Notes: a model not told the origin generated them from the letters alone. Shown: positions 13,778 through 36,068, counted from the stretch's first letter. The stretch: DNA of 64,000 nucleotides from an uncultured virus (IMG/VR IMGVR_UViG_3300028797_000119) (IMGVR_UViG_3300028797_000119); one strand, 5' to 3'. A program made the numbers and translations.

Positions 13778-13913
13778 ATAATCTCCTTTAAGTTTTATAA
13801 ATATAAGTTTTAGTTGACTGGTTGTCAATAGGGAAAATATCAAGTGTGATATTTTTACAAAAGGCGGCGGGAAAGATGCCACCCTTTAGGGTGGCTTATG
13901 AGAGCCGCCGATT

Positions 13914-14318
13914 CTAGCCTTGATTCTTAATGTATTCCACAAGTGTCTTTTCGGACACACCACCAATAGTCGAAGCAAAATAACCACGAGTCCACAGATG
14001 ATGCTGTCCAGACCAGTAGAACTTAGACAAGTAGTCATGATGCTTCTGCCATATTAGATAGGTAGACTGCTGTTTGAGGTCATGCACTATCCTAGAAATG
14101 GACTCATTTGGTTTAATGCGTACCAGTAGATGGATATGGTCGTGGTCTACCTCGTCTATTTCAATCTTGAAGTTTCCATTCTTCTCTTGAGCTACTTTCA
14201 TAGCTGCAAGCAAGTCGTCTCGGATAGGATTAAGCACCTTCCTACGATACTTGGTCGAGAAGATAAGATGATACCGCAAGAAGGTCTTTGCGTGGTTAAA
14301 TCGTTCATATTTGCTCAT
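13914..14318 (-). CDS. tnpA: IS200-type Y1 HUH transposase
   Basis: YHLIFSTKYRR, DHIHLL (HUH), LWTRGYF, YIKNQ. Confidence 0.95.
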   Translation of the reverse strand: MSKYERFNHAKTFLRYHLIFSTKYRRKVLNPIRDDLLAAMKVAQEKNGNFKIEIDEVDHDHIHLLVRIKPNESISRIVHDLKQQSTYLIWQKHHDYLSKFYWSGQHHLWTRGYFASTIGGVSEKTLVEYIKNQG

Positions 14319-14402
14319 ACACCATTAAATATAGTTAAAAAATAATAAAATGTCTTGCATTTTTGAGAAAAAATAACTAGATTGCATTATAAACTTAATG
14401 AT

Positions 14403-15677
14403 ATGAGCATGACCGAAGAACAGCGACTTGCAAAGAATGCTTCCATCAAGGAAGCGATGAAGGCTACGCACGAGAAGCGTAAGTCGCAAGTCTGCCGTGT
14501 CTATATGCTTAAAGTACAGAAAAACAAGTTGTCCGCCCGGCAGAAGGAAGACTTCAAGATGCTGTTCGTGGAAGCGAAGTGGCTGTACAACGATATTCTC
14601 AATTATGGTTCTGTTAAGGGACAGTCCATATTCGACTATGAACTAGGCAATGTAGTTGAAGTCAAGCTACCGGATGGTACATTCGATGGTAGGAACCTCG
14701 ACCATATCGGCTCACAGATGAAGCAGTCGGTCTATACTGACATCAAATCTTCAATCAAGGCGTTGTCGAAGCTCAAGAAGAAAGGTTTTAAGGTAGGACG
14801 GTTAAAGTTCAAATCCGAAATCGGGGCGGTGTCCTTGAAGCAGTACGGAACGACCTACAAGTTCCATAACGACCACCTTGTCAAGATTCAGAACATTCAC
14901 GGTCTGGTGCGAGTAAACGGTCTCGACCAGATTAAGGATGATGTTGAGTTCGCCAACGCGAAACTCTTAAATAGGGCTGACGGATACTATCTTGCCGTCA
15001 CGACCTATACAGAAAGAAAACCGTATTCCAACCGACCTCACGCTGATGTCGGTATCGACATGGGTTGTCATACTTCTTTCACGCTCTCAACGGGCGAGGA
15101 AGTTGATGTCAAGGTTAAAGAACCGGAGCACTTGAAAAGACTGCAACGAAAGCAGAGTAGACAGAAGAAAGGCTCCAATAGTCGAAGACGGACAATCCAC
15201 AAGATACAGAAGAAGCATCAGCGTTTGGTAAACCGAAAGAACGACAAGGCCAACAAGATTGTTGCCGACCTAAATTCTAGGTTCGGTCTTATATACATCC
15301 AGGACGAGAATCTCCAAGGATGGCATAAGGACGGACATGGCAAGGCGGTACAGCACAGTTGCTTAGGCAGAGTCAAGGCGAAACTGAAATCGCAAGACAA
15401 CGTCTATGTCGTCAATCGCTGGGAACCCACTACGCAGAAGTGCATCAACTGTGGCAAGAAACATCCTATGCCACAGAACGAACGCACATTCCGGTGCGAG
15501 TGCGGTCTGTGTATGCCCAGAGACCTTCATTCGGCTAACCGCATGGTACAGGAAGGTAGGAAGTTAGTACCTATGGAACAGAGGGAGTTCATGAGCTCTG
15601 ACTGGCAGACCTCTATCTTGTCCTATATTGGACAAGGCAAGCCCGCTGGGTTGAAGCCCGAAGCTCACCGCCTTTAG
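14403..15677 (+). CDS. tnpB: TnpB RNA-guided nuclease family protein
   Basis: GRLKFKS, VGIDMG (RuvC-I), TTQKCINCG/CECG Zn finger, RDLHSA (RuvC-III). Confidence 0.92.
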   Translation: MSMTEEQRLAKNASIKEAMKATHEKRKSQVCRVYMLKVQKNKLSARQKEDFKMLFVEAKWLYNDILNYGSVKGQSIFDYELGNVVEVKLPDGTFDGRNLDHIGSQMKQSVYTDIKSSIKALSKLKKKGFKVGRLKFKSEIGAVSLKQYGTTYKFHNDHLVKIQNIHGLVRVNGLDQIKDDVEFANAKLLNRADGYYLAVTTYTERKPYSNRPHADVGIDMGCHTSFTLSTGEEVDVKVKEPEHLKRLQRKQSRQKKGSNSRRRTIHKIQKKHQRLVNRKNDKANKIVADLNSRFGLIYIQDENLQGWHKDGHGKAVQHSCLGRVKAKLKSQDNVYVVNRWEPTTQKCINCGKKHPMPQNERTFRCECGLCMPRDLHSANRMVQEGRKLVPMEQREFMSSDWQTSILSYIGQGKPAGLKPEAHRL

Positions 15678-15758
15678 GCGGTGGGTAGTTCACATTCACG
15701 CATCAAGAAGAGGCCGGGAATAAACCCCGACCTCTCGACCTTTATTATGCGGAGAGTA

Positions 15759-23627: not shown

Positions 23628-24014
23628 CTACATATGGCACATATATTTAGAGACCACCTTGCAGCCGACAATCTCGTATGTCAAGCTGTCCGATATATGG
23701 AAATTCCGTATAATCTGCTCGTACGATTTCTTGCCGTTGGTAGACCAGCAAGCATAATTGTACTCCTTGTTGGCATACATTATGGTGATGTACGGCTGGG
23801 TTGAGACGGCGGCTCCTTCAAATATCCCGCCACCGACCGTAGCGGCTATCGGGTTGTCGATTTCCACATAGCCGCACGGAGTCTGGAAAACGACTTCGCT
23901 TCCGCGCTTCACGATTCCCATTCGAGCGGTTATTTCCTTTTCGGTTTTAGTGCAAGCATCTTCGCATCCGACAAGCGCAAATGCGGCAATCAATATTAAA
24001 ATCAGTTTCTTCAT
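23628..24014 (-). CDS. putative lipoprotein
   Basis: MKKLILILIAAFALVG-C lipobox. Confidence 0.7.
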   Translation of the reverse strand: MKKLILILIAAFALVGCEDACTKTEKEITARMGIVKRGSEVVFQTPCGYVEIDNPIAATVGGGIFEGAAVSTQPYITIMYANKEYNYACWSTNGKKSYEQIIRNFHISDSLTYEIVGCKVVSKYMCHM

Positions 24015-24034
24015 TGTTTTCCTCTTGGTTATGG

Positions 24035-24376
24035 TTAGACTTCACATTCATACTTTCCGGTGTTCTTGAACTGCATCCACTTCTTGTAGCAGTCTGGACC
24101 GACTGGATAGAAGTTCAGTTCGGCGTTCTCCTTGAAGCGTTCGTCTCGCGCACGGAGTTCAGCCGGAAATTCGTCCGGAAAGTCCGTCAGCAAGTCGCCG
24201 CCGTCGAACCAGTGGAGCATCTGCATCTTGCTCTTCTTTTCTTCGTTGATGGCCTTTCCGCAGATGCAGCACGGCGTACCGCCGTGGTCGTTAGTCCAGT
24301 CGTCATTCTTCCGAAAATTCGGCGACTTGATGTCGTCGTGCTTGATGATGGTCATCTTAATCTTGTTCGTTGCCAT
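24035..24376 (-). CDS. hypothetical Zn-binding protein
   Basis: CCICGK...VGPDC; junction element. Confidence 0.75.
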   Translation of the reverse strand: MATNKIKMTIIKHDDIKSPNFRKNDDWTNDHGGTPCCICGKAINEEKKSKMQMLHWFDGGDLLTDFPDEFPAELRARDERFKENAELNFYPVGPDCYKKWMQFKNTGKYECEV

Positions 24377-24446
24377 TATTGACTCCTTTTGGTTGTATAG
24401 CGGTTATGGAGAACCAGGGGAAGCCCGGACAGTTCTAGTTAATCGG

Positions 24447-24929
24447 TCACAAGGAAAAGTCCGGCATCGCTTTCGCGAACGCTTCCCATTCCTTGTGGTA
24501 CGGACAGTCTTCGGAATCAGCGAACTTCTGGTAGATACCAGTGAAGCGAGCCAGATGGGTCTTGCGGCTTTCAGGACCGTCCGTATAGATGGACGGAGCC
24601 ACGCGCTGACCGCCAGCAATCTTGAATCTTTCGAACGTGAACGTGACGATTCGACCGTTCAACACGCAGAAAGTGGCTCGAACGACAGTCTTGGAAAATT
24701 TGGTACTGCGGCTATAACCGCTGAGGCCGCTGTACATAATGACCTTGTAGCGTCCGCGCTTGATAGCGGACTTCTTGAAGAAAAGGTCACACACGTCGCG
24801 GAGAAGTTCGTCGAGTGACGAAAAACCATGTTCCAGACGGCCTTGAACTTGAGTTAATACTCCCAGAGCTTCCTTGTAGAGAAGATCGGAAATCTTGAGG
24901 GAGTTACCATTCCATTCGATAGTCTTCAT
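24447..24929 (-). CDS. hypothetical protein
   Basis: ORF with RBS. Confidence 0.7.
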   Translation of the reverse strand: MKTIEWNGNSLKISDLLYKEALGVLTQVQGRLEHGFSSLDELLRDVCDLFFKKSAIKRGRYKVIMYSGLSGYSRSTKFSKTVVRATFCVLNGRIVTFTFERFKIAGGQRVAPSIYTDGPESRKTHLARFTGIYQKFADSEDCPYHKEWEAFAKAMPDFSL

Positions 24930-24939
24930 ACTATCCCCC

Positions 24940-25191
24940 TTAGTCTTCGATGTTCAGCGTAATACCGAACTTTTCGAGAATTGACTTGCGGATGGTGAAT
25001 TTAATCTTACCAGACTTATGGTCGGCTTCTAGGACGGCAAAGCTGCGGTCACAAGCTCCGTCACCTTCATGGTAAACGCCGAGCTTGATGAAAGTCTGTG
25101 CCGGATTGTCCTTGCCGTAATAAGTATCATTAGCCCACGCGGTTCCGATAAGTTTTTTGGCGACCAGCTTACGTCGTAAATTCTGTTGCAT
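24940..25191 (-). CDS. hypothetical protein
   Basis: ORF with RBS. Confidence 0.65.
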   Translation of the reverse strand: MQQNLRRKLVAKKLIGTAWANDTYYGKDNPAQTFIKLGVYHEGDGACDRSFAVLEADHKSGKIKFTIRKSILEKFGITLNIED

Positions 25192-25384
25192 ATTTAACTC
25201 CTTTGGTTATGCCGACTGAACCGTATGCAGAACATAGTCTCTGCAATTCGGACAATAGCAGTTAACTTGGGTGGCCGAGGTCGGTGTTTCGTCCACCTTG
25301 GTAGTGTTGTGGCAACGATTGCAAACATATTTTTGCACCATTGGATACCTCTTGAAAATAAAAATGCCGGGGAAGCCCGGCCAC

Positions 25385-25750
25385 CTAGAGGTGAGTTTTC
25401 GGGTAAACTTGCTCCTTGTTCTTGCCGAGCCATTCGATTACGTTGTATATCAAGTTCAATTCGATCGAGTTAAAGCAAACCTTCGGAGCTATTCCGTACT
25501 TTGCGCGTGGCATAAATTCCGGATAGGTATCTGCGACATTGTTCTTCCCTTCGAACACGAACTCCTTGCCGCCATCTGGAGTGAAGTAAATCTTCACCCA
25601 AAGTTCGGTGTTCTTTTCGTCGCATATTAACAGGAGAAGCCGCGAAACCGTACCCTTGGGATAGCGGTTGTTCGGTCCACGGTCATCCTTGATGTCACTT
25701 TCATCAAAGTTGACCGTGAAGTGGAGTGTCTGCTCGCTACTTTGCGACAT
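25385..25750 (-). CDS. hypothetical protein
   Basis: start refined to ATG 25750. Confidence 0.6.
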   Translation of the reverse strand: MSQSSEQTLHFTVNFDESDIKDDRGPNNRYPKGTVSRLLLLICDEKNTELWVKIYFTPDGGKEFVFEGKNNVADTYPEFMPRAKYGIAPKVCFNSIELNLIYNVIEWLGKNKEQVYPKTHL

Positions 25751-25976
25751 ACACGCGCTCCGAGACGGGCTTCTTGAGCAAGGACAGAGCCTTCTTTTCG
25801 GGGATGAGCTTGCGGGTGCCGTCACCGAGACGAACGAACTTCATACCGGCGGTCTGGTTCATTTCGTTCTGGATTTTGATGATCGCGTAGTCGAATGCTG
25901 CGCGGTCGTCTTTGCTTCGTGCCAGCTTTTTGTAACGAGCGAGGGTTGTGATGATTTCGGAACGATTAGTAGCCAT
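25737..25976 (-). CDS. small basic protein
   Basis: AAGGAGG RBS. Confidence 0.7.
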   Translation of the reverse strand: MATNRSEIITTLARYKKLARSKDDRAAFDYAIIKIQNEMNQTAGMKFVRLGDGTRKLIPEKKALSLLKKPVSERVYVAK

Positions 25977-26091
25977 ATTGGCCTCCTTTTGTTTGTGGTT
26001 GATTGTTTGTTGTATAGGTTTGATGAATGGTTTGGGGAAACCCGGACTGGTTACTTCCAGTCACCGGATTCGAGAAAGGTCTTTACACGCA

Positions 26092-26778
26092 TTACAATTC
26101 CAGATTGTATACATCGCCAGTGTCGTTAGCCACGATGCGAGCCAGATCCGGCACGAATCCGTCATACGTCACCGTGTCGGTGATTTCGCGCATCAAGCGA
26201 GCGGCTTCGGTGATGATGTAAGCGTCGAAGTTCTGGCGAGAACTGGCGATACGGTTGATACCCTGTTCGTAGGACGTGTTCACCGCTTTGCCGTGTTCGT
26301 CGCGACGGTAGAAAGTCACTAAGAAGTTCTGATAGGTGATAAGCTCGTTCAGCTTGGACATAAATTCGGCGAGACGGACGACCTTGTCGAAGACGGTCTT
26401 GCGTTCACCCTTGGCGAAGGTCTTCGGCACGTACTGTTTCACAGCCGTGTGCAGTCCCATACGCTGGATGGTGAACTTGCGGCTCCCACGGTCGTGAGAA
26501 ACGCGGAAGTTCTTGTCGCCGAAGACGATGGAGAGGTCGTTCAGCACGTCCTCGATCTTCTTGAGGAAAATCTTCTTCAGGCAGCCGTCGGTCTGCTTGT
26601 ACGCATCGTCGCAGAGGCAGAAGGTAAATTCGCCCGTGCGGTAGTTCACCTTGTCGGTGTTGACAACATTGTCAAGGTGGTAGAGCTTGTAGACCGGGGA
26701 CGTTGTGATGGTGGTTTCCATCTTGTCCATCAATTCCTTGTCGGCGGCCAAGACGGTATCAACGGTAAATTGTTTCAT
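26092..26778 (-). CDS. hypothetical protein
   Basis: AAGGAG RBS, junction element. Confidence 0.75.
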   Translation of the reverse strand: MKQFTVDTVLAADKELMDKMETTITTSPVYKLYHLDNVVNTDKVNYRTGEFTFCLCDDAYKQTDGCLKKIFLKKIEDVLNDLSIVFGDKNFRVSHDRGSRKFTIQRMGLHTAVKQYVPKTFAKGERKTVFDKVVRLAEFMSKLNELITYQNFLVTFYRRDEHGKAVNTSYEQGINRIASSRQNFDAYIITEAARLMREITDTVTYDGFVPDLARIVANDTGDVYNLEL

Positions 26779-26860
26779 AATGGACTCCTTTGGTTTGTGT
26801 AGGTATTATTGATGGATGGTTAGGGGAAACCCGGACTATACCATGACAGTCTTGATGTTG

Positions 26861-27278
26861 ACATTCCACGCATATTCGTGGGTTTTATAACGTTGACGTA
26901 ATTGATCCCCACATGCATGGGTTGTATAGCGGTTCATCGAATATTGGCCGATAATTCACGTTTCAATCCCCACATGCATGAGTTATATCTGCATTTCGAC
27001 GTTCGTCACTTCGGCATTTTCTTTCAATCCCCACATACGTGGGTTGTATCAAACGCACCGACAACACCTAATACTACACTATCTTTCAATCCCCACATGC
27101 GTGGGTTGTATAACCGGGCGCATATTTTTTCAATCCCCACATACGTGTGTTGTATATATAAATTTTTAATCTATGTTTGTCAACCATTTTTCAATCCCCA
27201 CCTTCATGGGTTGTATTAAAACACGCTACCGGAGCGAATTACGCTATATTTTTCAATCCCCACGCATGTGGGTAGTGT
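26861..27278 (-). CRISPR. leader-distal degenerate CRISPR segment (7 recognisable repeats plus 1 relic)
   Basis: + strand TTTCAATCCCCACATRCRTGGGTTGTAT variants at about 26902, 26961, 27022, 27084, 27128, 27189, 27251; relic near 26861; spacers 33-34 nt except one of 16 nt. Confidence 0.9.
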
Positions 27279-27286
27279 GGTTTCAC

Positions 27287-27674
27287 AAAAAGCGTGGGCA
27301 GGAAGATGCCGTCCTTTTAGGGCGGCATAGGAATGCCCACGAAAGCACTTGCATTTTGAAAAGATATAAACTATATTGTACATAACGCTGAAAGTCTTGC
27401 TGAAATAAAAGGCACTCATCTAAAAGTCCAAAAGAGGCTCGTGGCTTGGTGAGGAAACAGTTTGATTGGATTCGGTAGCCACATACATAACGAGTTCAAG
27501 ATGCATTATGAGTATAGCGGATTGCTGAAATGCAGTCTAACCATCCCGACTCGTATGCCTACGCATACTTGACGGGCAGGCCGCAAGTCAACCGGCCAAT
27601 CGTATGTAAGTCTCCTCCGTGGAAACGCGCTGGAGCTTTACAAGCTCACCGCATTTAGGCGGTGCGTAGTTGAC
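27287..27674 (+). mobile_element. non-autonomous IS200/IS605-type mini-element (388 bp, no credible ORF) inserted in a CRISPR spacer
   Basis: ends homologous to the IS at 13859-15693: TCAC|AAAAAGCGTGGGCAG-GAAG-ATGCCGTCC-TTTTA-GGGCGGCAT and CAAG-CTCACCGCATTTAGGCGGTGCGTAGT-TGAC; flanks 8+26 nt rebuild a 34-nt spacer. Confidence 0.85.
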
Positions 27675-27700
27675 AGATGCGTGCGTAGTAAGTCTTGGTT

Positions 27701-28713
27701 TTGCAATCCCCACGCATGTGGGTAGTGTATATTGATTGACTTGTAAATCATAGGTCTCTACTTTGCAATCCCCACACATGTGGGTAGTGTTTCGAACTTA
27801 CCATCGAGAACATCAGGCCATTTCTTGCGATCCCCACACAAGTGGGTTGTGGCTAGCGCGTAAGCGGAAACATCATCGAACTGGTTTTGCGATCCCCACG
27901 CATGTGGGTTGTGTCATTCCGTAAGCACCTGATGTTATTGGGTTACATTGCAATCCCCACGCATGTGGGTTGTGTTGCAAGCGTGATGTAGACGGTCGTG
28001 TTATAGTCTTGCAATCCCCACGCATGTGGGTTGTGTTTCGATGTGACGCACCTTGCGAGAGACGACCCATTTGCGATCCCCACGCATGTGGGTTGTGTTG
28101 ACCAAAAGAAAACGCGCTGTCCTTTTGAATTGCAATCCCCACGTGTGTGGGCTGTGTCGTAGCCTTAACGCACAAGCTAGCTCTGACATTTTTGCAATCC
28201 CCACGCATGTGGGTTGTGTTCCTTTGCAAGAGACTTAGGCAAATCCGAAACATTTTGCAATCCCCACGCATGTGGGTTGTGTGTTCTAACATCGTTAAAG
28301 TGGGATTGGGAGATTTTGCAATCCCCACGCATGTGGGTTGTGTTTGGTCAACCCGCCCGGACAGAGTTTCAAATAGTTTGCAATCCCCACGCATGTGGGT
28401 TGTGTCCTTCTGCGACGACGGATGGAGCTACAAGCATTTTGCAATCCCCACGCATGTGGGTTGTGTCATGTTCCAGGGCTGTACTTCACTAACGACAGTT
28501 TTGCAATCCCCACGCATGTGGGTTGTGTTTCTCGTCTTCAATCATTGTTCCGCCGCTTGACATTGCAATCCCCACGCATGTGGGTTGTGTCGCTAAGGCA
28601 GTATTCGATAAGGTGTTCCTTGTTTTGCAATCCCCACGCATGTGGGTTGTGTACGCAGACGTGCGTCCGGCTCCACTGCTCGACTTTGCAATCCCCACGC
28701 ATGTGGGTTGTGT
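27701..28713 (-). CRISPR. CRISPR array, 17 repeats and 16 spacers
   Basis: 28-nt repeat TTGCAATCCCCACGCATGTGGGTTGTGT (+) with period about 61-62; mutations cluster at the left (trailer) end; AT-rich leader 28714-28773 next to cas2. Confidence 0.98.
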
Positions 28714-28773
28714 GCTGCATTTGTAGCAATAAATACTATTTATGAGGCTGCACAATGTATCATTTTAATTACA

Positions 28774-28983
28774 TTAAAAGGACTGTACGACTGGCATGAT
28801 ACCTTGTATAGGTTCTGTAGCTATATGAAAAGCCACCTTATTTGATGTCAAGAAATCTACTAACGACGACACTATTTTCGTGTTGGCGCACGTTGCATAG
28901 ACCCTTGGCGTTAGCTTAGTCGAAAAATTAGCTAACCGACCAGATACTGACGGTGGACACTGATTGACTATAAAAACGGTCAT
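28774..28983 (-). CDS. cas2: Cas2, type I-E-like (short, 69 aa)
   Basis: MTVFIVNQCPPSVSGRLANF...PRVY resembles Cas2e PPRLRGRLA..GVYV; ATGA overlap with cas1. Confidence 0.8.
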   Translation of the reverse strand: MTVFIVNQCPPSVSGRLANFSTKLTPRVYATCANTKIVSSLVDFLTSNKVAFHIATEPIQGIMPVVQSF

Positions 28984-29804
28984 GCCACATCCCTTATGAA
29001 CAAATCTTCTAATAAACTTGTAAACTTTCGAGTAATCTTAAACTTATTCAATTCATTTGACAAATCGGACAACAATTCATTCACATCAGTTTCGGTGTGA
29101 CTTACCACATATTTCATAGCACACGGAATCGTAGTATCTACTTTATACACATCAGCTAAATCATACGCCAACGGAGTAGAACCATTACCATGTATTACTC
29201 CAAATTGTGGTAGAAACCCCATTGCAGTTATACATGCCGTAGCTACACCATACAAAGCCATATTGCAAACCGTTATCGCAAAATTCAACCGATCATCTGG
29301 ATCCATGTCGCTTACTTGCGGAATGCGACCAGACCATTCAACTCCATAGAATTTAGACAATCCGTCATACGCTTGCTTCATGGCCGTAGCTTCGACGAGC
29401 AACAACTGTTTCACGCCCATTTTGACATTGGATTCAATCCTACGATACTTTAGTAACAATCTCCATAGCTGTTGCCGTTTAGTCATTATACGATTGATTT
29501 GTTCTTTGGCATTTTTCATACTTGACTGAACATTCATACCAACTGTATACATTGACATTCCAGACCGTCCACACCATACCACCGTTACATTACTATCGGA
29601 CAATAGTTTCACGGCATCCCTGGAAATCGATGTGCCGCATCCAAGCATGAGACATGCAATTCCTTCAACGCATAACGACTGTTTACCGGTTATCTTCGAC
29701 AATATCATGATGGTTCCATCAACCACCACGATATTGCATTTTTCCAAATAACGGATACTGAGCCGATCGTCCATTCGTACATGCGGTATATTACATGTCG
29801 GCAT
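28980..29804 (-). CDS. cas1: Cas1, type I-E-like
   Basis: DRLSIRYLE, CLMLGCGTSIS..AV, VVWCG, GVIHG, LAYDLADVYK. Confidence 0.92.
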   Translation of the reverse strand: MPTCNIPHVRMDDRLSIRYLEKCNIVVVDGTIMILSKITGKQSLCVEGIACLMLGCGTSISRDAVKLLSDSNVTVVWCGRSGMSMYTVGMNVQSSMKNAKEQINRIMTKRQQLWRLLLKYRRIESNVKMGVKQLLLVEATAMKQAYDGLSKFYGVEWSGRIPQVSDMDPDDRLNFAITVCNMALYGVATACITAMGFLPQFGVIHGNGSTPLAYDLADVYKVDTTIPCAMKYVVSHTETDVNELLSDLSNELNKFKITRKFTSLLEDLFIRDVA

Positions 29805-30333
29805 TTTCTGTAGCCTTGATAATGGGTAGACCGAGACCGAGATACTTTACTCGACCGTAGCCAGTAACGGCGAACTTTTCCAAAACGGCAGAATCGTCGC
29901 ATTCGCATTCGGCAACGATACGGCAAGTAGCCAGACGAGAACGGTGTTCTTCGTCGCACACCATGCCATCGAACTTGTACGAAGCGTCCAGCACTTCGAT
30001 GCCGATGGACTTCATGTACGTTCTGAACTTGGGATCCAGCCGGGTGCGGTATTCGTTCGGCATGATCGAGTGGTTGCGACCGTCCTTGCGAGTGACGGCG
30101 GCAACCGTCATTTCGATAGTGACCTTGCCAGTCGGAACCTTGACTTCGCTTACGTTCAGCACATCGGACTTGTCCTTCGGCGGTTCGCTAGACTGCACGT
30201 AGAGCATCGTTCCGATCTTGCAGTAACGAGGGCATGATTCCTTGTCAGTAGGGTTGTGGAAAATCTTGTGAAGTTTCTTATGTGCATCATTGGGCGTCTT
30301 GATGCCAGTTCCCTGAATAAGAGATATAAACAT
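29791..30333 (-). CDS. cas6: Cas6, Cas6e-like and compact
   Basis: H...HKIF, LYVQSSEPP, C-terminal G-loop GYGRVKYLGLGL. Confidence 0.8.
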   Translation of the reverse strand: MFISLIQGTGIKTPNDAHKKLHKIFHNPTDKESCPRYCKIGTMLYVQSSEPPKDKSDVLNVSEVKVPTGKVTIEMTVAAVTRKDGRNHSIMPNEYRTRLDPKFRTYMKSIGIEVLDASYKFDGMVCDEEHRSRLATCRIVAECECDDSAVLEKFAVTGYGRVKYLGLGLPIIKATENADM

Positions 30334-30395
30334 GTTGACTCCTTTTGGTTATGTATTACCAATGAATGACTGAGGGGAAACCCGCACTATATTTA

Positions 30396-31361
30396 TCAGT
30401 CTTTGTTCGGTACGAACGGCGTCGGAAGGCTCTCGTAGGTTTCGTTCCACGCTTCGCATACGTTAGGCACAACAACGTAACCGCCGTCCATGAACGTAGC
30501 GCACATCGGGCCTTTCAGCATCGCGATCCATTCAGCCTCTGTCAGCTTCATGTAGATGTTTCCGGACACAACCGTCGCAAGTTCAGGCGACCCATGTACC
30601 GGGGGACAAGCAAGCCATGCCTCAAACTTGGACGCGGTTGCGTAGTTTTCCATACGGAACACCGAGTCTATTATGGATTTGTCCTTGACAATCTTGATGA
30701 AGTCACGGTCAAATCCGTTGGAGCAGTTACCTTCCTTGGATTCGATGAACTTGTTCAGCTTGGCGTTCTTTGCGACAAACAGCTTGCGGAGTTCGGTCAA
30801 GGTCTGCAAGAACGAGTAGCGAACCTTGTAGTCTGCACCGAGAACATCAATGCAGAAATTATCGAAATCAAGGTACTCGTTCGGATATTTTCCGGTACAC
30901 CATGCGAGAGACATCGTCTGGTGGGTCGGACAGCTTCTGCCGAGTTTAAACCATTCTCCGTCAAGTTCGATCCGAACCAGAGTGGATTCGGTAGAATGTG
31001 CGTAGTACGCCTTGTTAGTAGTCAAGGTGGACTTGTTGACCTTGTCGGTCAAGATTTCAACAAAGCAACGGCTTGCGATGTCGTTGTACTTGGACTGGTC
31101 ATAGACGGCAACCGAGCTGCAATCCCGCTTGGCCGGGACTGGTCGGTCTCCCATTAACACGCTGACCAAGTTGGTCACGCAATGCTTCGGTACGGTATTC
31201 TCCGGACATATGGTACGACGGCTGATGTCGATACTTCCGCGCTTGGGAGTAAGGGTTTCTCGCGTGATGATACCGAAACCATACGGCACATGAGAAATCT
31301 TTTGTTCAGCAAAAAATTTTGCGTTCTTGAAGGACAGCTTGGCGAGGACATACTTAGTCAT
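30396..31361 (-). CDS. cas5: large Cas5, Cas5fv (I-F2)-like
   Basis: 321 aa between cas7 and cas6; VTNLVSVLMGDR, VSGNIYM, GPMCATFMDGGYV recall Cas5fv LNRLIGDQR, ASGQLEI and the terminal G-loop. Confidence 0.65.
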   Translation of the reverse strand: MTKYVLAKLSFKNAKFFAEQKISHVPYGFGIITRETLTPKRGSIDISRRTICPENTVPKHCVTNLVSVLMGDRPVPAKRDCSSVAVYDQSKYNDIASRCFVEILTDKVNKSTLTTNKAYYAHSTESTLVRIELDGEWFKLGRSCPTHQTMSLAWCTGKYPNEYLDFDNFCIDVLGADYKVRYSFLQTLTELRKLFVAKNAKLNKFIESKEGNCSNGFDRDFIKIVKDKSIIDSVFRMENYATASKFEAWLACPPVHGSPELATVVSGNIYMKLTEAEWIAMLKGPMCATFMDGGYVVVPNVCEAWNETYESLPTPFVPNKD

Positions 31362-31423
31362 GGTAAAAACTCCTTATGAAAAATGGGCTGGCTGTTGCCA
31401 ACCAGCCCCAGGAATCAACGAAC

Positions 31424-32467
31424 TTATGCGGATTCTTCGGTTGCGGCCTTTTCTTCGGCTTCCTTCTTTGCCTTTCTGGCTTCCTGTTCGGCCTTCTTCT
31501 TGGCGGACTTGGCAGCCTTGTTGGATTCGGCAAGCTGGCGTTCAACTTCAGCCTTGGCAGTCTCGTACTTGGCCTTGTCGCCTTCGATATACTGGCTGCA
31601 TACGCCGTAGTCGGAACCGAGATCGAAATTTTCAACAACGTTGTTGTCTTCGTCGAGTGCGGATACCTTCATGGAAGCGAACCTTGTGAAACCTGTTGCC
31701 TTTTCGATGTTGAAAGCCTTCAAGGTATCGGCATACCAAGAAACGATGGAACGGACTGCGGAGTCAGGAAGCATGTAGCCGTATTCCGGAGTGTCCACAC
31801 TTGCATTCTTCAATGCGTAGTAGCCGTCAGCCACATCGCCGTAATTCTTGCGGAGATTGGCAAGAACGATATTTTCGAGGTGGCGAGGAACTGCGCGACG
31901 GTCGAAGATGTCGCTCACGGAAATGAACTGGAGTTCGCTCAGGTTGATGGTCACTTCAAATTCCCAGACGGTAGAACCGAAAGTTTCTTGCTGGAAATAC
32001 GACGTGTCGTTGCGGACACCAGACGCGGACTTGCTTTCGATCATGGACACAGCACCGGATTTTTCTTCGGCGTCGGTCACTGACAGCGGAGACTTGCGCT
32101 TTGTTGCGGTGTCGCCTTCCTTGGGGAACATATAGCCACGGAGGATAGCTTCCTTGGAGGCCAGGTATTCAGCCCAGATGCTGTCTACCAAGGTGATGGT
32201 GCTGTTCTTAGTGCCAGCCATCTGGTGACGGATGCAGTCGGCACTGATTTTCAGCACACGGACGAGCTTGCCGTCACGGATGTAGTAGTTAGCCTTGTGC
32301 CACTTGATGTTCTTAACGTACTTGGCGGTCACGTCCGGGTTAAAGCCAGCATCTTGCATGGCCTTGACGAAGGCATCCTTGTTGCCGTTGGAGCCTTCCC
32401 AGTTTACGCCACCCTTACCGGTGGTTGTGACAGTGAAGGTGATAGACTTGATGTTCTTACTAGTCAT
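31424..32467 (-). CDS. cas7: Cas7fv (type I-F2/I-Fv)-like backbone subunit
   Basis: IKSITF...GKGGVNWEG, ISADCIRH, ILRGY, KRKSPL, RNDTSYF..ETFG, ELQFIS...FDR match Shewanella Cas7fv motifs as I recall them. Confidence 0.85.
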   Translation of the reverse strand: MTSKNIKSITFTVTTTGKGGVNWEGSNGNKDAFVKAMQDAGFNPDVTAKYVKNIKWHKANYYIRDGKLVRVLKISADCIRHQMAGTKNSTITLVDSIWAEYLASKEAILRGYMFPKEGDTATKRKSPLSVTDAEEKSGAVSMIESKSASGVRNDTSYFQQETFGSTVWEFEVTINLSELQFISVSDIFDRRAVPRHLENIVLANLRKNYGDVADGYYALKNASVDTPEYGYMLPDSAVRSIVSWYADTLKAFNIEKATGFTRFASMKVSALDEDNNVVENFDLGSDYGVCSQYIEGDKAKYETAKAEVERQLAESNKAAKSAKKKAEQEARKAKKEAEEKAATEESA

Positions 32468-32554
32468 AGTTGATTCCTTTTTGTTGTTTAATGGTTTTGG
32501 CGAACCGCCGACGCATTCCTCATGCAACTGCGAGGGAACCCCGCCTCAAGACAA

Positions 32555-34912
32555 TCAGTCCTTCGGCTTGTTCTTGAAGATCCCGATATCATGTGAATAT
32601 AGCAATTCGCTAGGATTGACGATATACGGATAGTTCTCGTTGCGGTAGAAAGACTTGTTGAGAAGGTACTTCTTGCGCTTGTTCTCCCCCTTCTTCCCCG
32701 GTTCCCCAAGGTATTCAGCGAGCTTAGGGAACTTTGTCCTCAGTGAGTCTCCGTACTTGGCGCAAACTGACTTAAGCTCGTCTTGGCTCCAACGGTAGGC
32801 GAACGCCTTGTAGAGGTTTTCCACCTTGTCCATATCCATTTCGCTCTCTCCGACGGAGAACGGACCGAACCACTCGTCTTGATTCTCGCCAAGAACGATG
32901 TACTTCATGGACGGGTCTGGATTGCGTATCGTGCCGTGACCTGTCTTGCCGATAGTCGTCTTGGTGTTGTAGTAAGGACGTTGCGGATGGCACTTCTCGG
33001 CAAGAACTTGCACACCGTTACGGAACAGTCGGTCGGCATACTTCTGCTGTTGCATGGCGGTTTCCTTGTTGAACTGGTCAAGCAGCTCGTACATCATCGT
33101 CAAGGTCATGTCGCCGTTGAAATGCTTCTTGACAAAGTCAGCCCACAGACCGTAAAGGGTCAAGTCGTACTGCTTCTCGATGTAGGTCTTGTTCGCCTTG
33201 GTCAATTTGTCCGGAACGACGAGGTAAAGCTCGGCTTCTTCGTACTCGCCGAAGCGGTCGCACCTACCGATACATTGGATATCGTTGTTCGGGGACGAGC
33301 ACATGATTGCCATGCTCTGGAAGGATATGTCCGCACTTGCCCTCAAGATAGGGCCGCTACACACGGCAAACTTGTCACCAGTTGCTCCCTTGCCATAGCT
33401 TGCGTAAATCTTGCCCATCTTGTCGGCTCGATCCTCGGCGGTGTACTTGGAATGGATGCACACATCGCCAGCATTGATGTCGCAATACTTCTGCGCATCT
33501 TCTACCACGTTGAAAATACGGATTTGGTTGTCCTTGCGGTCGGGCATTTCGCTCACCACGTGGACGTGGTACACCTTGTCGTGCTGAGGTGCAAAATGCT
33601 GGTTCTCGCCGGGAAGAACGGCAACAGTGGACTGGTCGAGACAGTGCTGCTTTTCTAGCTTCACCGGGGTAGCGGAAAGGAACATCTGCGGAGCCTTGGT
33701 GATAGCCGCACGGGCGTAGGCAAGCATGCTGTAGGCGGCGTACATAGCGGACATGTCTTGCGGAATTTCGTGGTATTCGTCGAATACCATCACGGCGCGG
33801 AACATTTCGTACTGAACATCAGCAAGTCGCTGACTTGCCATCGGCTGAGTAATCGCGTCGATGTTCGTTACGATGATGTGAGGCGAATTGACAGACACGG
33901 GACCGAAAGATGTCTCGTTTCCACCATACACCTTGCTAACGTGGAGGTTCAAGCCCATGAGTCTGTCCAAGTCCTTCAACCCTTCGTAAACCGCGTCGAT
34001 TACAACGTTTCTCGGACACACCCACATTACAGGCCGTCCGTACTGCAAAGCCCATGCCATGCCGACAAGGGTCTTTCCGAAACCAGCCGGGGCGGCAAGC
34101 ATGTTCGTCACTCGGTTGGCAGCAGTTATAATGGCCTTCTGCGTGGCGAAACGAGCCTTGTAGCTCTCTGGAACGGCAAGCTGTTCCGCAGAAACATTTT
34201 TATAGCGGCTCTCGTTGCTGTAATGACGACCGCTTGCCTCTCGGTCGCCACGTATAAGCACCATACGGACAAACGAGATCAATGCGTTCACCTCAACCAG
34301 TTCCACCTTCTGCCTTGTCAAGGTCTGGAAGCGCTCGTTGTCGCTTGCATAGGAAGGAACCTTTACGTTGTCGGAATAGCTTTCTGGTTCCGGAACGGTG
34401 ATTCCGAGGTAGTCGCAGATAGGTTCAAACGAAAAAATAAAATTGCCGTACTCGTCCTTGGCGTTCAGCAATGACGGAGAATTATCGAAGTCCTGGGCGG
34501 CACCATGATGCCAATATACAGCGTTGAGGATTGCTTCACGCAATACGGGCGGCAACCCGTACTGGTCGAGAATGGACGGCATCAATGCCAGTGCCAGCCA
34601 GCTGTACTCGTTGTGGAAACGCAGTGCGGTAACTTCCGCGCCAGCTTCCTTGGACCCGTCAACCATGTCGGCGGTAGGATCGTCTGTTTCGGCCATCGTC
34701 TTCGCGAGATAGGTCTGGAAATACGGCAGAGCCTTGCCGATATCGTGGTATCTTCCGGCAATTCGGCATGCCTCGATAATCTGCTCCCTAGACACGCCAG
34801 CGATGCTCACTTCGTCCGCAATAAGGTCGGCTGCAATAGCAACACAACGTGCTTCGGTAAGATTACTGTGGTATTGTAATGTGGTTCCATCACTCTTTGC
34901 TAGGTAAATCAT
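32555..34912 (-). CDS. cas3: Cas3 HD nuclease-SF2 helicase, stand-alone
   Basis: LAKS...H, YHDIGK, HNEYS, WHHG; APAGFGKT, FDEYH, LSATP, IHSKY, QCIGRCDRFG. Confidence 0.95.
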   Translation of the reverse strand: MIYLAKSDGTTLQYHSNLTEARCVAIAADLIADEVSIAGVSREQIIEACRIAGRYHDIGKALPYFQTYLAKTMAETDDPTADMVDGSKEAGAEVTALRFHNEYSWLALALMPSILDQYGLPPVLREAILNAVYWHHGAAQDFDNSPSLLNAKDEYGNFIFSFEPICDYLGITVPEPESYSDNVKVPSYASDNERFQTLTRQKVELVEVNALISFVRMVLIRGDREASGRHYSNESRYKNVSAEQLAVPESYKARFATQKAIITAANRVTNMLAAPAGFGKTLVGMAWALQYGRPVMWVCPRNVVIDAVYEGLKDLDRLMGLNLHVSKVYGGNETSFGPVSVNSPHIIVTNIDAITQPMASQRLADVQYEMFRAVMVFDEYHEIPQDMSAMYAAYSMLAYARAAITKAPQMFLSATPVKLEKQHCLDQSTVAVLPGENQHFAPQHDKVYHVHVVSEMPDRKDNQIRIFNVVEDAQKYCDINAGDVCIHSKYTAEDRADKMGKIYASYGKGATGDKFAVCSGPILRASADISFQSMAIMCSSPNNDIQCIGRCDRFGEYEEAELYLVVPDKLTKANKTYIEKQYDLTLYGLWADFVKKHFNGDMTLTMMYELLDQFNKETAMQQQKYADRLFRNGVQVLAEKCHPQRPYYNTKTTIGKTGHGTIRNPDPSMKYIVLGENQDEWFGPFSVGESEMDMDKVENLYKAFAYRWSQDELKSVCAKYGDSLRTKFPKLAEYLGEPGKKGENKRKKYLLNKSFYRNENYPYIVNPSELLYSHDIGIFKNKPKD

Positions 34913-34971
34913 TGGTAAATTCCTTTGTTGTTGACCGCATTGGTTTGATACAACCACTGGGAAACCCCGGA

Positions 34972-35547
34972 CTAGAAGCGGAGTTTTTTCTTGGCTTTTT
35001 TCACCCTGCTTTCATCCTCGGATTTCTTGATTTCGTTCTGCTTGATAGAACATTCAATCTGCGGGATGAACGATAGCAGGTGGGTAATTGCACTGTCCAT
35101 GTCGTAGAACACCTTGGTTCTCACCGTTGACGGAGTACATGTGTACGGACTTGAATAGTAGGAAAAGAGAAATTCGTCGCCAGCGTCCAAACGGGAGGTG
35201 TCCTTGTCAATGACAATCCACGCAAAGTATACTTCCGCAGTGGACTGGACGGTTTCGATGGCGAGGAAACAGTCGGTACGTTTCGGCATGGTGGCTCTCA
35301 GAGCCTTATTTAAGGCGGCACGGGTCGCCTTGACGTTTTTTGCACCACGAATTGCAATGGTCTTAAATTTTCCCTCAGCATTACGCACATGGTTGACGCA
35401 AGACGCTCCGCTAGATTCGCTAACATCGCTTTCCTTTGCAAGGTCATGGTCATCGTCCACAAAGGCCACCATATTAAGATAGTGGTTGTCTTGGTAGTCA
35501 AGCTTGTGGGAATAGGCGGTGCAGGATTTTCCAAAAAGAAATTTCAT
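34972..35547 (-). CDS. hypothetical protein
   Basis: AAGGAG RBS. Confidence 0.7.
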   Translation of the reverse strand: MKFLFGKSCTAYSHKLDYQDNHYLNMVAFVDDDHDLAKESDVSESSGASCVNHVRNAEGKFKTIAIRGAKNVKATRAALNKALRATMPKRTDCFLAIETVQSTAEVYFAWIVIDKDTSRLDAGDEFLFSYYSSPYTCTPSTVRTKVFYDMDSAITHLLSFIPQIECSIKQNEIKKSEDESRVKKAKKKLRF

Positions 35548-35567
35548 GTCTTCTCCTTTTGATTGTG

Positions 35568-36068
35568 CTATCCGACAATAATACCACGATTGGCAAGGAA
35601 TCGGTTAGCGATGTTCAATATCTTGGTCACGAAGGCTTCGTTCCCATTCAGTTCGCAAGTCATAACCTTGTTGTAGTCACGATGCCCGTACACGGGAGAA
35701 CAGAAGTACAGATGGGTGTGTCCTTTCATCGGAACCTTCGTATAAGACGATACCGGATTCGTCAGCAATTCGCGCAAGCATTCAAGAGCAACGGCCTTGT
35801 AGTGAGTGGTTCCGAACTGACGATAACCGCCCCGGCGAATGAAAGCGTCCGATTCGGCCTTACGGCGGAACTCAGATCGTTCGGAGCTTTGGTTAACGAG
35901 ACCGCACTTATACGTGAGCATCTTTTGGGTGGTTGCGGACTGTTCGATAAGATGTCCAAGTTCGCAAGGAGTGGGCGTATGACCCAGCTTGATAGCTGCC
36001 AGATGCCATACTTCGGTCTTGTTGAACGCCTTGATGGCGGCGCGGAATGCTTTAAGCGTGAATTTCAT
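35568..36068 (-). CDS. hypothetical protein
   Basis: AAGGAG RBS, junction element. Confidence 0.75.
   Translation of the reverse strand: MKFTLKAFRAAIKAFNKTEVWHLAAIKLGHTPTPCELGHLIEQSATTQKMLTYKCGLVNQSSERSEFRRKAESDAFIRRGGYRQFGTTHYKAVALECLRELLTNPVSSYTKVPMKGHTHLYFCSPVYGHRDYNKVMTCELNGNEAFVTKILNIANRFLANRGIIVG

Follow-up and report, generated by a model that had tools for sequence, protein, structure and literature searches.

A gene-less IS200/IS605-type element with an omegaRNA-type 3' module interrupts a CRISPR spacer in DNA of an uncultured virus

The window analysed here is a 64,000-nucleotide (64-kb) stretch of DNA from an uncultured virus (IMG/VR IMGVR_UViG_3300028797_000119), in which PHROG and Pfam searches left most open reading frames without a match. 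Viral contigs of 185-355 kb carry relatives of its IS elements, and a huge phage, or some other large mobile element equipped with its own CRISPR-Cas system, is a possible source of the window. In it, a CRISPR array adjoins a cas operon resembling a type I-F variant, and one spacer of the array is split by an insert. The features of this region are as follows.

26900-28713, minus strand: CRISPR array with 28-nt repeats and spacers of about 31-35 nt; leader at the cas-proximal, high-coordinate end and degenerate repeats at the low-coordinate end
27251-27278, minus strand: CRISPR repeat directly left of the split spacer
27279-27286, plus strand: left 8 nt of the split spacer, ending in the 5-nt insertion target and presumed TAM, TTCAC (27282-27286)
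27287-27674, plus strand: protein-free mini-element of PATE type, 388 bp, delimited by the array spacing and by 10 further distinct insertion sites
27675-27700, plus strand: right 26 nt of the split spacer, whose first 16-20 nt would, by position, be the omegaRNA guide
27701-27728, minus strand: CRISPR repeat directly right of the split spacer
28774-34957, minus strand: cas operon adjoining the array, type I-F-variant-like
28774-28983, minus strand: 69-aa open reading frame in the cas operon
28980-29804, minus strand: Cas1
31424-32527, minus strand: Cas7fv-like protein
32555-34957, minus strand: Cas3, 800 aa, with a Cas3fv match
within the cas operon, minus strand: a 321-aa and a 180-aa protein without clear matches

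The layout of the repeats on the minus strand (6 nt, a 5-bp hairpin and an 8-nt tail), the decay of repeats at the low-coordinate end and the minus-strand cas genes together suggest that the array is transcribed on the minus strand. Repeats follow one another with a start-to-start spacing of 59-63 nt, with the single exception of a 450-nt interval, which equals 62 + 388. In this interval the mini-element has GGTTTCAC directly before it and 26 nt of spacer after it. As the initial annotation had proposed, excision of the insert gives back a 34-nt spacer, and a normal 62-nt repeat-spacer unit is regained. The boundaries of the element were confirmed by a 99%-identical copy that has the same limits at an unrelated site. 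At the trailer end of the array (26900-27217), the repeats follow a different consensus that has decayed, and one of the units (27084 to 27128) measures just 44 nt.

The window also carries a complete IS200/IS605 element, 11.6 kb from the mini-element, against which the ends of the latter were compared.

13859-15693, plus strand: full IS200/IS605 element with flank TTTAC and terminus TTCAC; candidate source of TnpA in trans
13914-14318, minus strand: tnpA of the full element, Y1 transposase (Pfam Y1_Tnp, E 1e-31)
14382-15677, plus strand: tnpB of the full element, with OrfB_IS605 and Cas12f1-like TNB domains
27292-27341, plus strand: left end of the mini-element, with an outer stem, the DNA guide GAAG (27302-27305) and a subterminal hairpin (27306-27328)
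27641-27674, plus strand: right end of the mini-element, with the DNA guide CAAG (27641-27644), the right hairpin (27647-27664) and the terminal TTGAC (27670-27674)

Both hairpins of the mini-element nearly match those of the full element, in agreement with what had been claimed for them. Significant blastn similarity between the two is limited to the right hairpin, and the likeness at the left end is structural, consisting of a hairpin and an outer stem with a compensatory sequence difference. Across the copies of the mini-element described below, pair 26-38 of left-end helices 1 and 2 is AU in 7 and GC in 5.

In IS608, each hairpin foot is preceded on its 5' side by a tetranucleotide that covaries with the one at which TnpA cleaves, and insertion takes place 3' of a fixed short motif without target duplication. 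Judged from its sequence, the mini-element appears to behave like IS608 in the covariation of guide and cleavage tetranucleotides, with motifs that differ from those of IS608. The tetranucleotides had been read correctly in the window, and the pairing rule was also kept across relatives. Among 39 distinct left ends, GAAG was found after TCAC in 35 of 35 and AAAG after TTAC in 4 of 4; the pattern used to retrieve most of these loci prescribed the guide but not the flank. Among 26 rows of right ends, fetched by a pattern for the hairpin only and including two rows that duplicate one contig, GAAG accompanied TCAC in 22 and CAAG accompanied TGAC in 4, with zero exceptions. On these counts the guide/cleavage rule extends well beyond the window. 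The flanks on either side of the mini-element differ at every site, and neither target duplication nor terminal inverted repeats accompany it.

The loci that bear tnpA belong to one subfamily only, and their hairpins are nearly the same as those of the mini-element. Because the hairpins of the mini-element nearly match those of the tnpA-bearing element in the window, its movement by TnpA supplied in trans is plausible on sequence grounds. A near-identical right hairpin is in fact common to at least seven lineages with unrelated upstream interiors (L002-L021 among the loci retrieved here, designated by L numbers, and window 15634-15693). This offers a clean natural example of IS200/IS605 modularity, in which one pair of hairpins, and presumably one TnpA, serves at least seven interior lineages. 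Since the terminal motif of the TTCAC-ended lineages is the target motif of the mini-element's lineage, the latter could insert directly behind them.

Two observations on right ends in relatives are recorded here. In L009/L010, right ends of two different lineages (positions 115-137 and 1844-1866) share one orientation at a distance of 1,729 bp, an arrangement that would be expected had one element gone in immediately behind the other. In one tnpB-bearing element (L110:1700-1798), the right-hairpin stem carries the left-hairpin sequence of the family, and the omegaRNA helix is the variant found in the mini-element.

Beyond the window, copies of the mini-element, full or partial and 71-99% identical, were found at 10 further distinct sites, all in ruminant-gut viral and metagenome contigs and none in a CRISPR array. 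The full-length copies are L005 (99%), L030 (=L032), L039, L044 (=L053), L052, L056, L058 and L065 (86-90%), and L057, the most divergent at 71% identity and 398 bp; partial copies lie at contig ends in L031 and L045. The resulting alignment has 12 rows with 11 distinct left flanks, the left flank of L039 being that of L030. TCAC precedes the element in 12 of 12 copies, and TTGAC forms the terminus in all of the 10 of 12 whose right end was captured. The initial description of the insert as a mobile IS605-type module, free of protein genes and with a structured RNA interior reaching the right end, is supported, and the unit is present at 11 distinct sites. The 99%-identical copy lies in a 223,861-bp viral contig that has nothing else in common at the DNA level with window positions 24000-36000, and the element has thus moved recently between genomes that are otherwise unlike.

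In a word index of public sequencing runs, 20 holders from 17 studies were found, almost all of them labelled ruminant gut. As we read it, a lineage consisting of a guide RNA only has come to occupy many sites in mobile genomes of the ruminant gut. Matches to the right-hairpin and left-end patterns were numerous in viral and metagenome contigs. A collection with one genome per species gave 0 matches for the right-hairpin pattern and 0 for the interior pattern, and a host was accordingly not found in it; the mini-element was also without a match in the phage and plasmid collections. Two of the copies, L030:1462-1841 and L039:1462-1841, have the same left flank and different right flanks, which points to recombination or rearrangement at the element, or to sequences joined in assembly.

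The interior of the mini-element has two parts, the second of which is related to the 3' ends of tnpB-bearing elements and the first of which follows a promoter-like site.

27349-27377, plus strand: promoter-like site, TTGCAT, 17-nt spacer, TATATT; predicted start near 27384
27384-27520, plus strand: 5' domain 'X', conserved and non-coding, between the promoter-like site and the tnpB-derived part
27534-27674, plus strand: omegaRNA-type 3' module of ~140 nt with a closing helix, homologous to the 3' ends of tnpB-only elements
27579-27583 with 27593-27597, plus strand: GGCCG/CGGCC helix of the 3' module, with GTCAAC (27587-27592) in its loop
27612-27635, plus strand: GAAA hairpin of the 3' module

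A set of tnpB-only elements of 1.38-1.40 kb (L001, L022, L025, L028, L040, L041, L046, L050, L054 and L110) has the same left end, TCAC target, TTGAC terminus and last ~110 nt as the mini-element, and TnpB domains were identified in the three of their proteins that were scanned. The most divergent mini copy, L057, still encodes residues 366-409 of the TnpBs of this matching lineage at 73-82% identity, and the other minis show weak matches to the same residues (E 3e-4 to 0.16). The 3' part is therefore a decayed tnpB 3' end, where a TnpB omegaRNA lies, and we assign it to the omegaRNA type for this reason. The tnpB in the window belongs to a different subfamily with an unrelated 3' region. Thus the initial view that the interior does not resemble the 3' end of this tnpB was right, whereas a relation to tnpB does exist, the last ~140 nt of the interior being the decayed 3' end of another lineage. 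The 64-kb window contains no tnpB of the matching lineage. In L110, which bears tnpB, the GGCCG/CGGCC helix occurs in the same variant as in the mini-element, and on the contig holding the 99%-identical copy there is a tnpB (L067) whose 3' region is of similar build and ends in TTGAC. A search against Rfam returned nothing at the gathering score, and at E values up to 10 only two chance hits to snoRNAs, with E of 7-9.

To evaluate the 3' module, a hand-written structure was applied to 19 sequences, comprising 9 minis and 10 tnpB-linked sequences. Of all cells, 91.4% were paired, and 11 of 27 pairs were changed on both sides, as compared to 5.8 +/- 1.2 in shuffles (0 of 500 reached 11) and 0-3 when the partners were slid. 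Pairing is complete (100%) in the helix around the invariant GTCAAC loop, whose pairs occur as CG:9 GC:8 GU:2 and CG:11 UA:8. These paired changes are harder to explain without an RNA because part of the module is protein-coding in the tnpB-bearing elements. As to the possibility raised at the outset, that the interior is a decayed tnpB coding fragment, the 3' part is a decayed tnpB end and shows compensatory changes.

Over the whole mini-element, a consensus structure obtained with RNAalifold from 12 copies was 98.8% paired, with 14 of 88 pairs double-changed versus 4.1 +/- 1.4 in shuffles. We regard this as supportive rather than conclusive, because the structure derives from the same alignment and the double changes in the 5' domain come mostly from L057. 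In this copy, at 71% identity, pairing is kept in every predicted helix of the 5' domain. Folding gave -74.2 for the forward strand of the whole mini-element versus -56.9 for its reverse complement, and -32.1 versus -20.9 for the 5' domain. The stability of the window copy folded as a single sequence is not unusual (z = -1.33).

Among the stems named from the window sequence, three are supported in the 12-copy comparison, namely GGCCG/CGGCC, the GAAA-capped hairpin and GTATG/CATAC, the last of which is absent in the most divergent copy. The other two were dropped: changes in the remaining copies at the CTCGT/ACGAG pair fit another helix, and the crossing TTGAC/GTCAA pair occurs in only 2 of 11 copies.

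A different long-range contact is a candidate pseudoknot. The last 6 nt of the mini-element complement the invariant loop ~86 nt upstream, exactly so in 16 of 21 right ends of the subfamily, and the pairing amounts to 97.4%, with one pair broken in 3 of 19 sequences; since the pairing bases never vary, the contact is without covariation support. The corresponding GTGAAC partner was absent in 17 of 17 cases from the TTCAC-ended subfamilies, which represent different RNA lineages and hence provide no test of the pseudoknot.

Upstream of the RNA module, a promoter-like stretch is found both in the mini-element and before the tnpB of the window, as had been noted initially. In 12 of 12 copies it falls in the same columns of the alignment and agrees with the consensus at 8-10 of 12 positions; its form is TTGNNN, a 16-17-nt spacer and TATATT or TAAATT. 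A promoter scanner omitted the site of the window copy because its score of 8/12 fell under the threshold. The 5' domain that follows (~130 nt) is the best-conserved part of the mini family and had zero relatives outside this family in the sequences searched, which included tnpB-bearing elements; by eye, its first ~25 nt resemble the 5' leader of tnpB in the parent elements. No open reading frame of at least 25 aa is common to all 12 mini copies, and interior patterns searched in viral contigs retrieved known copies and chance loci only (L072-L094, L097).

In RNA libraries, contigs of 4 of 4 runs contain related mini copies, without indication of strand, ends or level, and 3 of the 4 contigs run on into flanks unlike those of the window. 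They could be DNA carry-over or read-through, and stretches of the element that they leave uncovered carry no information.

Elements of this kind are already published, as omegaRNA-encoding PATEs and as standalone mobile omegaRNAs, in the portions of the literature cited here. PATE-like IS200/IS605 elements of Geobacillus stearothermophilus lack genes and 'often encode omegaRNAs' that need the TnpB of other elements in trans, according to the cited part of Meers et al. (2023 preprint, PMC10055086). Like the PATEs described in that part, the mini-element has no protein gene, its ends are common to tnpB- and tnpA-bearing elements, and its TAM differs from the element's own terminal motif (TEM). 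Unlike them as described there, the mini family is found in uncultured ruminant-gut viral and metagenome contigs, with one copy inside a CRISPR spacer, and possesses its own promoter-like site and an extra conserved 5' domain of ~130 nt. Standalone mobilised omegaRNAs that function in trans with compatible effectors are mentioned in a passage of Altae-Tran et al. (2023, PMC10691335) that summarises work from 2021. The mini-element resembles those of that summary in being an evidently mobilised guide-RNA locus without effector or transposase, and may likewise function in trans. For the omegaRNA of ISDra2 TnpB, the relevant section of Nakagawa et al. (2023, PMC10097598) describes a scaffold that stops at the right end, a guide taken from the flank, and guide-adjacent bases that pair with a site ~100 nt upstream to form a pseudoknot. 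Compared with the ISDra2 pseudoknot in that section, the contact between the last 6 nt of the mini-element and the loop ~86 nt upstream is one of complementarity alone, without covariation. Relative to these systems, two additions in the mini-element are of modest interest, namely a conserved 5' domain preceded by a promoter-like site, and the insertion into a spacer; the 5' RNA domain and promoter provide a concrete target for finding out what a trans-acting omegaRNA needs.

The mini-element is a discrete, non-coding element present at many sites; its ends are of the IS200/IS605 kind, and its omegaRNA-type 3' module is structurally constrained. We consider it probable (roughly 0.8) that it is a non-autonomous, PATE-type derivative of a tnpB-only IS200/IS605 element and carries a TnpB omegaRNA, with TnpA and TnpB both acting in trans. 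On the best reading of its parts, it has retained the hairpin ends, the tnpB promoter and 5' leader, a 5' RNA domain and the omegaRNA 3' module. A Y1 TnpA, for example that of the full element 11.6 kb away, would excise it in trans as single-stranded DNA and insert it 3' of TTCAC. From the element's own promoter, a plus-strand RNA of ~290 nt would run through the right end into the flank. Bound to this RNA, a matching-lineage TnpB supplied from another locus would then cut empty sites flanked by TTCAC, and repair after the cut would restore the mini-element (homing). An occupied site would be spared, since the element terminates in TTGAC and not TTCAC. The mini-element presumably landed in this particular spacer because the spacer contains TTCAC.

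The main departure from this reading would be that the mini-element is an inert deletion remnant, whose ends can still be moved by TnpA, whose interior RNA has no function and whose conservation reflects recent spread. Such a remnant would be consistent with RNA-library contigs that have neither strand nor ends, with the unexceptional fold of the window copy (z = -1.33) and with the 86-90% identity of most copies, which makes them fairly young. One relative, L047:1619-1783 (minus strand, 165 bp), retains both ends and part of the tnpB leader, and has none of the omegaRNA helices; deletion derivatives without the RNA module evidently arise freely. Nevertheless, the RNA-bearing form occupies 11 sites and the RNA-less form only this one, a ratio that fits an advantage of RNA retention and does not prove it. 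Inertness also sits poorly with the retained pairing of L057 in every 5'-domain helix and compensatory changes far above the controls, with a promoter-like site present in 12 of 12 copies despite differing hexamers, and with G-U pairs that make the fold strand-specific. On balance we find an inert remnant unlikely. The 5' domain, for its part, might be a separate passenger, such as a small regulatory RNA or another cis element unrelated to TnpB guidance. Its ~130 nt have no relative in the tnpB-bearing elements examined and are still the best-conserved part, and the cited section of the ISDra2 study reports a complex solved with a 116-nt scaffold, so that a core omegaRNA needs no such extension (PMC10097598). 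Against this, no Rfam family matches the domain, and its first ~25 nt look, by eye, like the parental tnpB 5' leader. Flanked by the promoter and, on the same strand, by the omegaRNA core, with no terminator, it would therefore form the 5' part of the same transcript. An independent passenger is a faint prospect, below that of a remnant.

A further question is whether the position in the array has meaning of its own. By position, the guide of the omegaRNA would be the remainder of the spacer from 27675 onwards, as the initial annotation had inferred, and as TTCAC directly adjoined the 26-nt flank before the insertion, an invader with this protospacer would show a guide match adjacent to the TAM. 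This contiguity, together with the idea, discussed in the cited part of Altae-Tran et al. (PMC10691335), that TnpB insertion near pre-existing arrays was a route to Cas12, would be in keeping with a functional OMEGA-CRISPR hybrid, in which the insertion was selected for turning a spacer into an omegaRNA guide, or was a step towards a type V-like locus. The broader claim of a link between OMEGA elements and CRISPR was not supported by the comparison with relatives: of 35 distinct left-end sites in the subfamily, just one is located in an array. A check of the flanks of 107 loci for CRISPR-like repeats gave two hits, both at unrelated chance loci, and none at the other loci of the family. Furthermore, the mini-element reads on the plus strand, while the array, which belongs to a type I system, and its cas genes are on the minus strand; the element sits among older spacers near the degenerate end of the array. 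The nearest tnpB, 11.6 kb away, is of another subfamily, with none of the matching lineage in the window, and the empty-site array or protospacer that might have been expected was not seen, viral contigs containing 0 exact matches to a 24-base pattern for the junction. The spacer location thus appears to be an accident of the preference for a TTCAC target, and the link to CRISPR incidental; of all the readings weighed here, a selected hybrid is the one to which we give least credence. A bolder combination would be that the spacer remainder serves as the guide of a promoter-driven omegaRNA, with which a matching TnpB in the same mobile genome cuts the invader recorded by CRISPR, the 5' domain being a novel accessory of a selfish element that has a guide only and exploits the TnpBs of others. 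We hold this to be very improbable; if true, it would be a one-step transfer of adaptive-immunity memory to a transposon nuclease.

In a limited literature search, no report was found of an IS605-type or PATE insertion inside a CRISPR spacer. As a curiosity, the site illustrates how an omegaRNA guide could come from immune memory, the use of this in nature being only a possibility. The insertion would have cost the array one old spacer and placed a 388-nt antisense stretch in the pre-crRNA. Inside the mini-element, on the minus strand at 27511-27539, there is also a sigma-70-like site (9/12) that faces the older part of the array and could restart antisense or array transcription downstream of the insertion.
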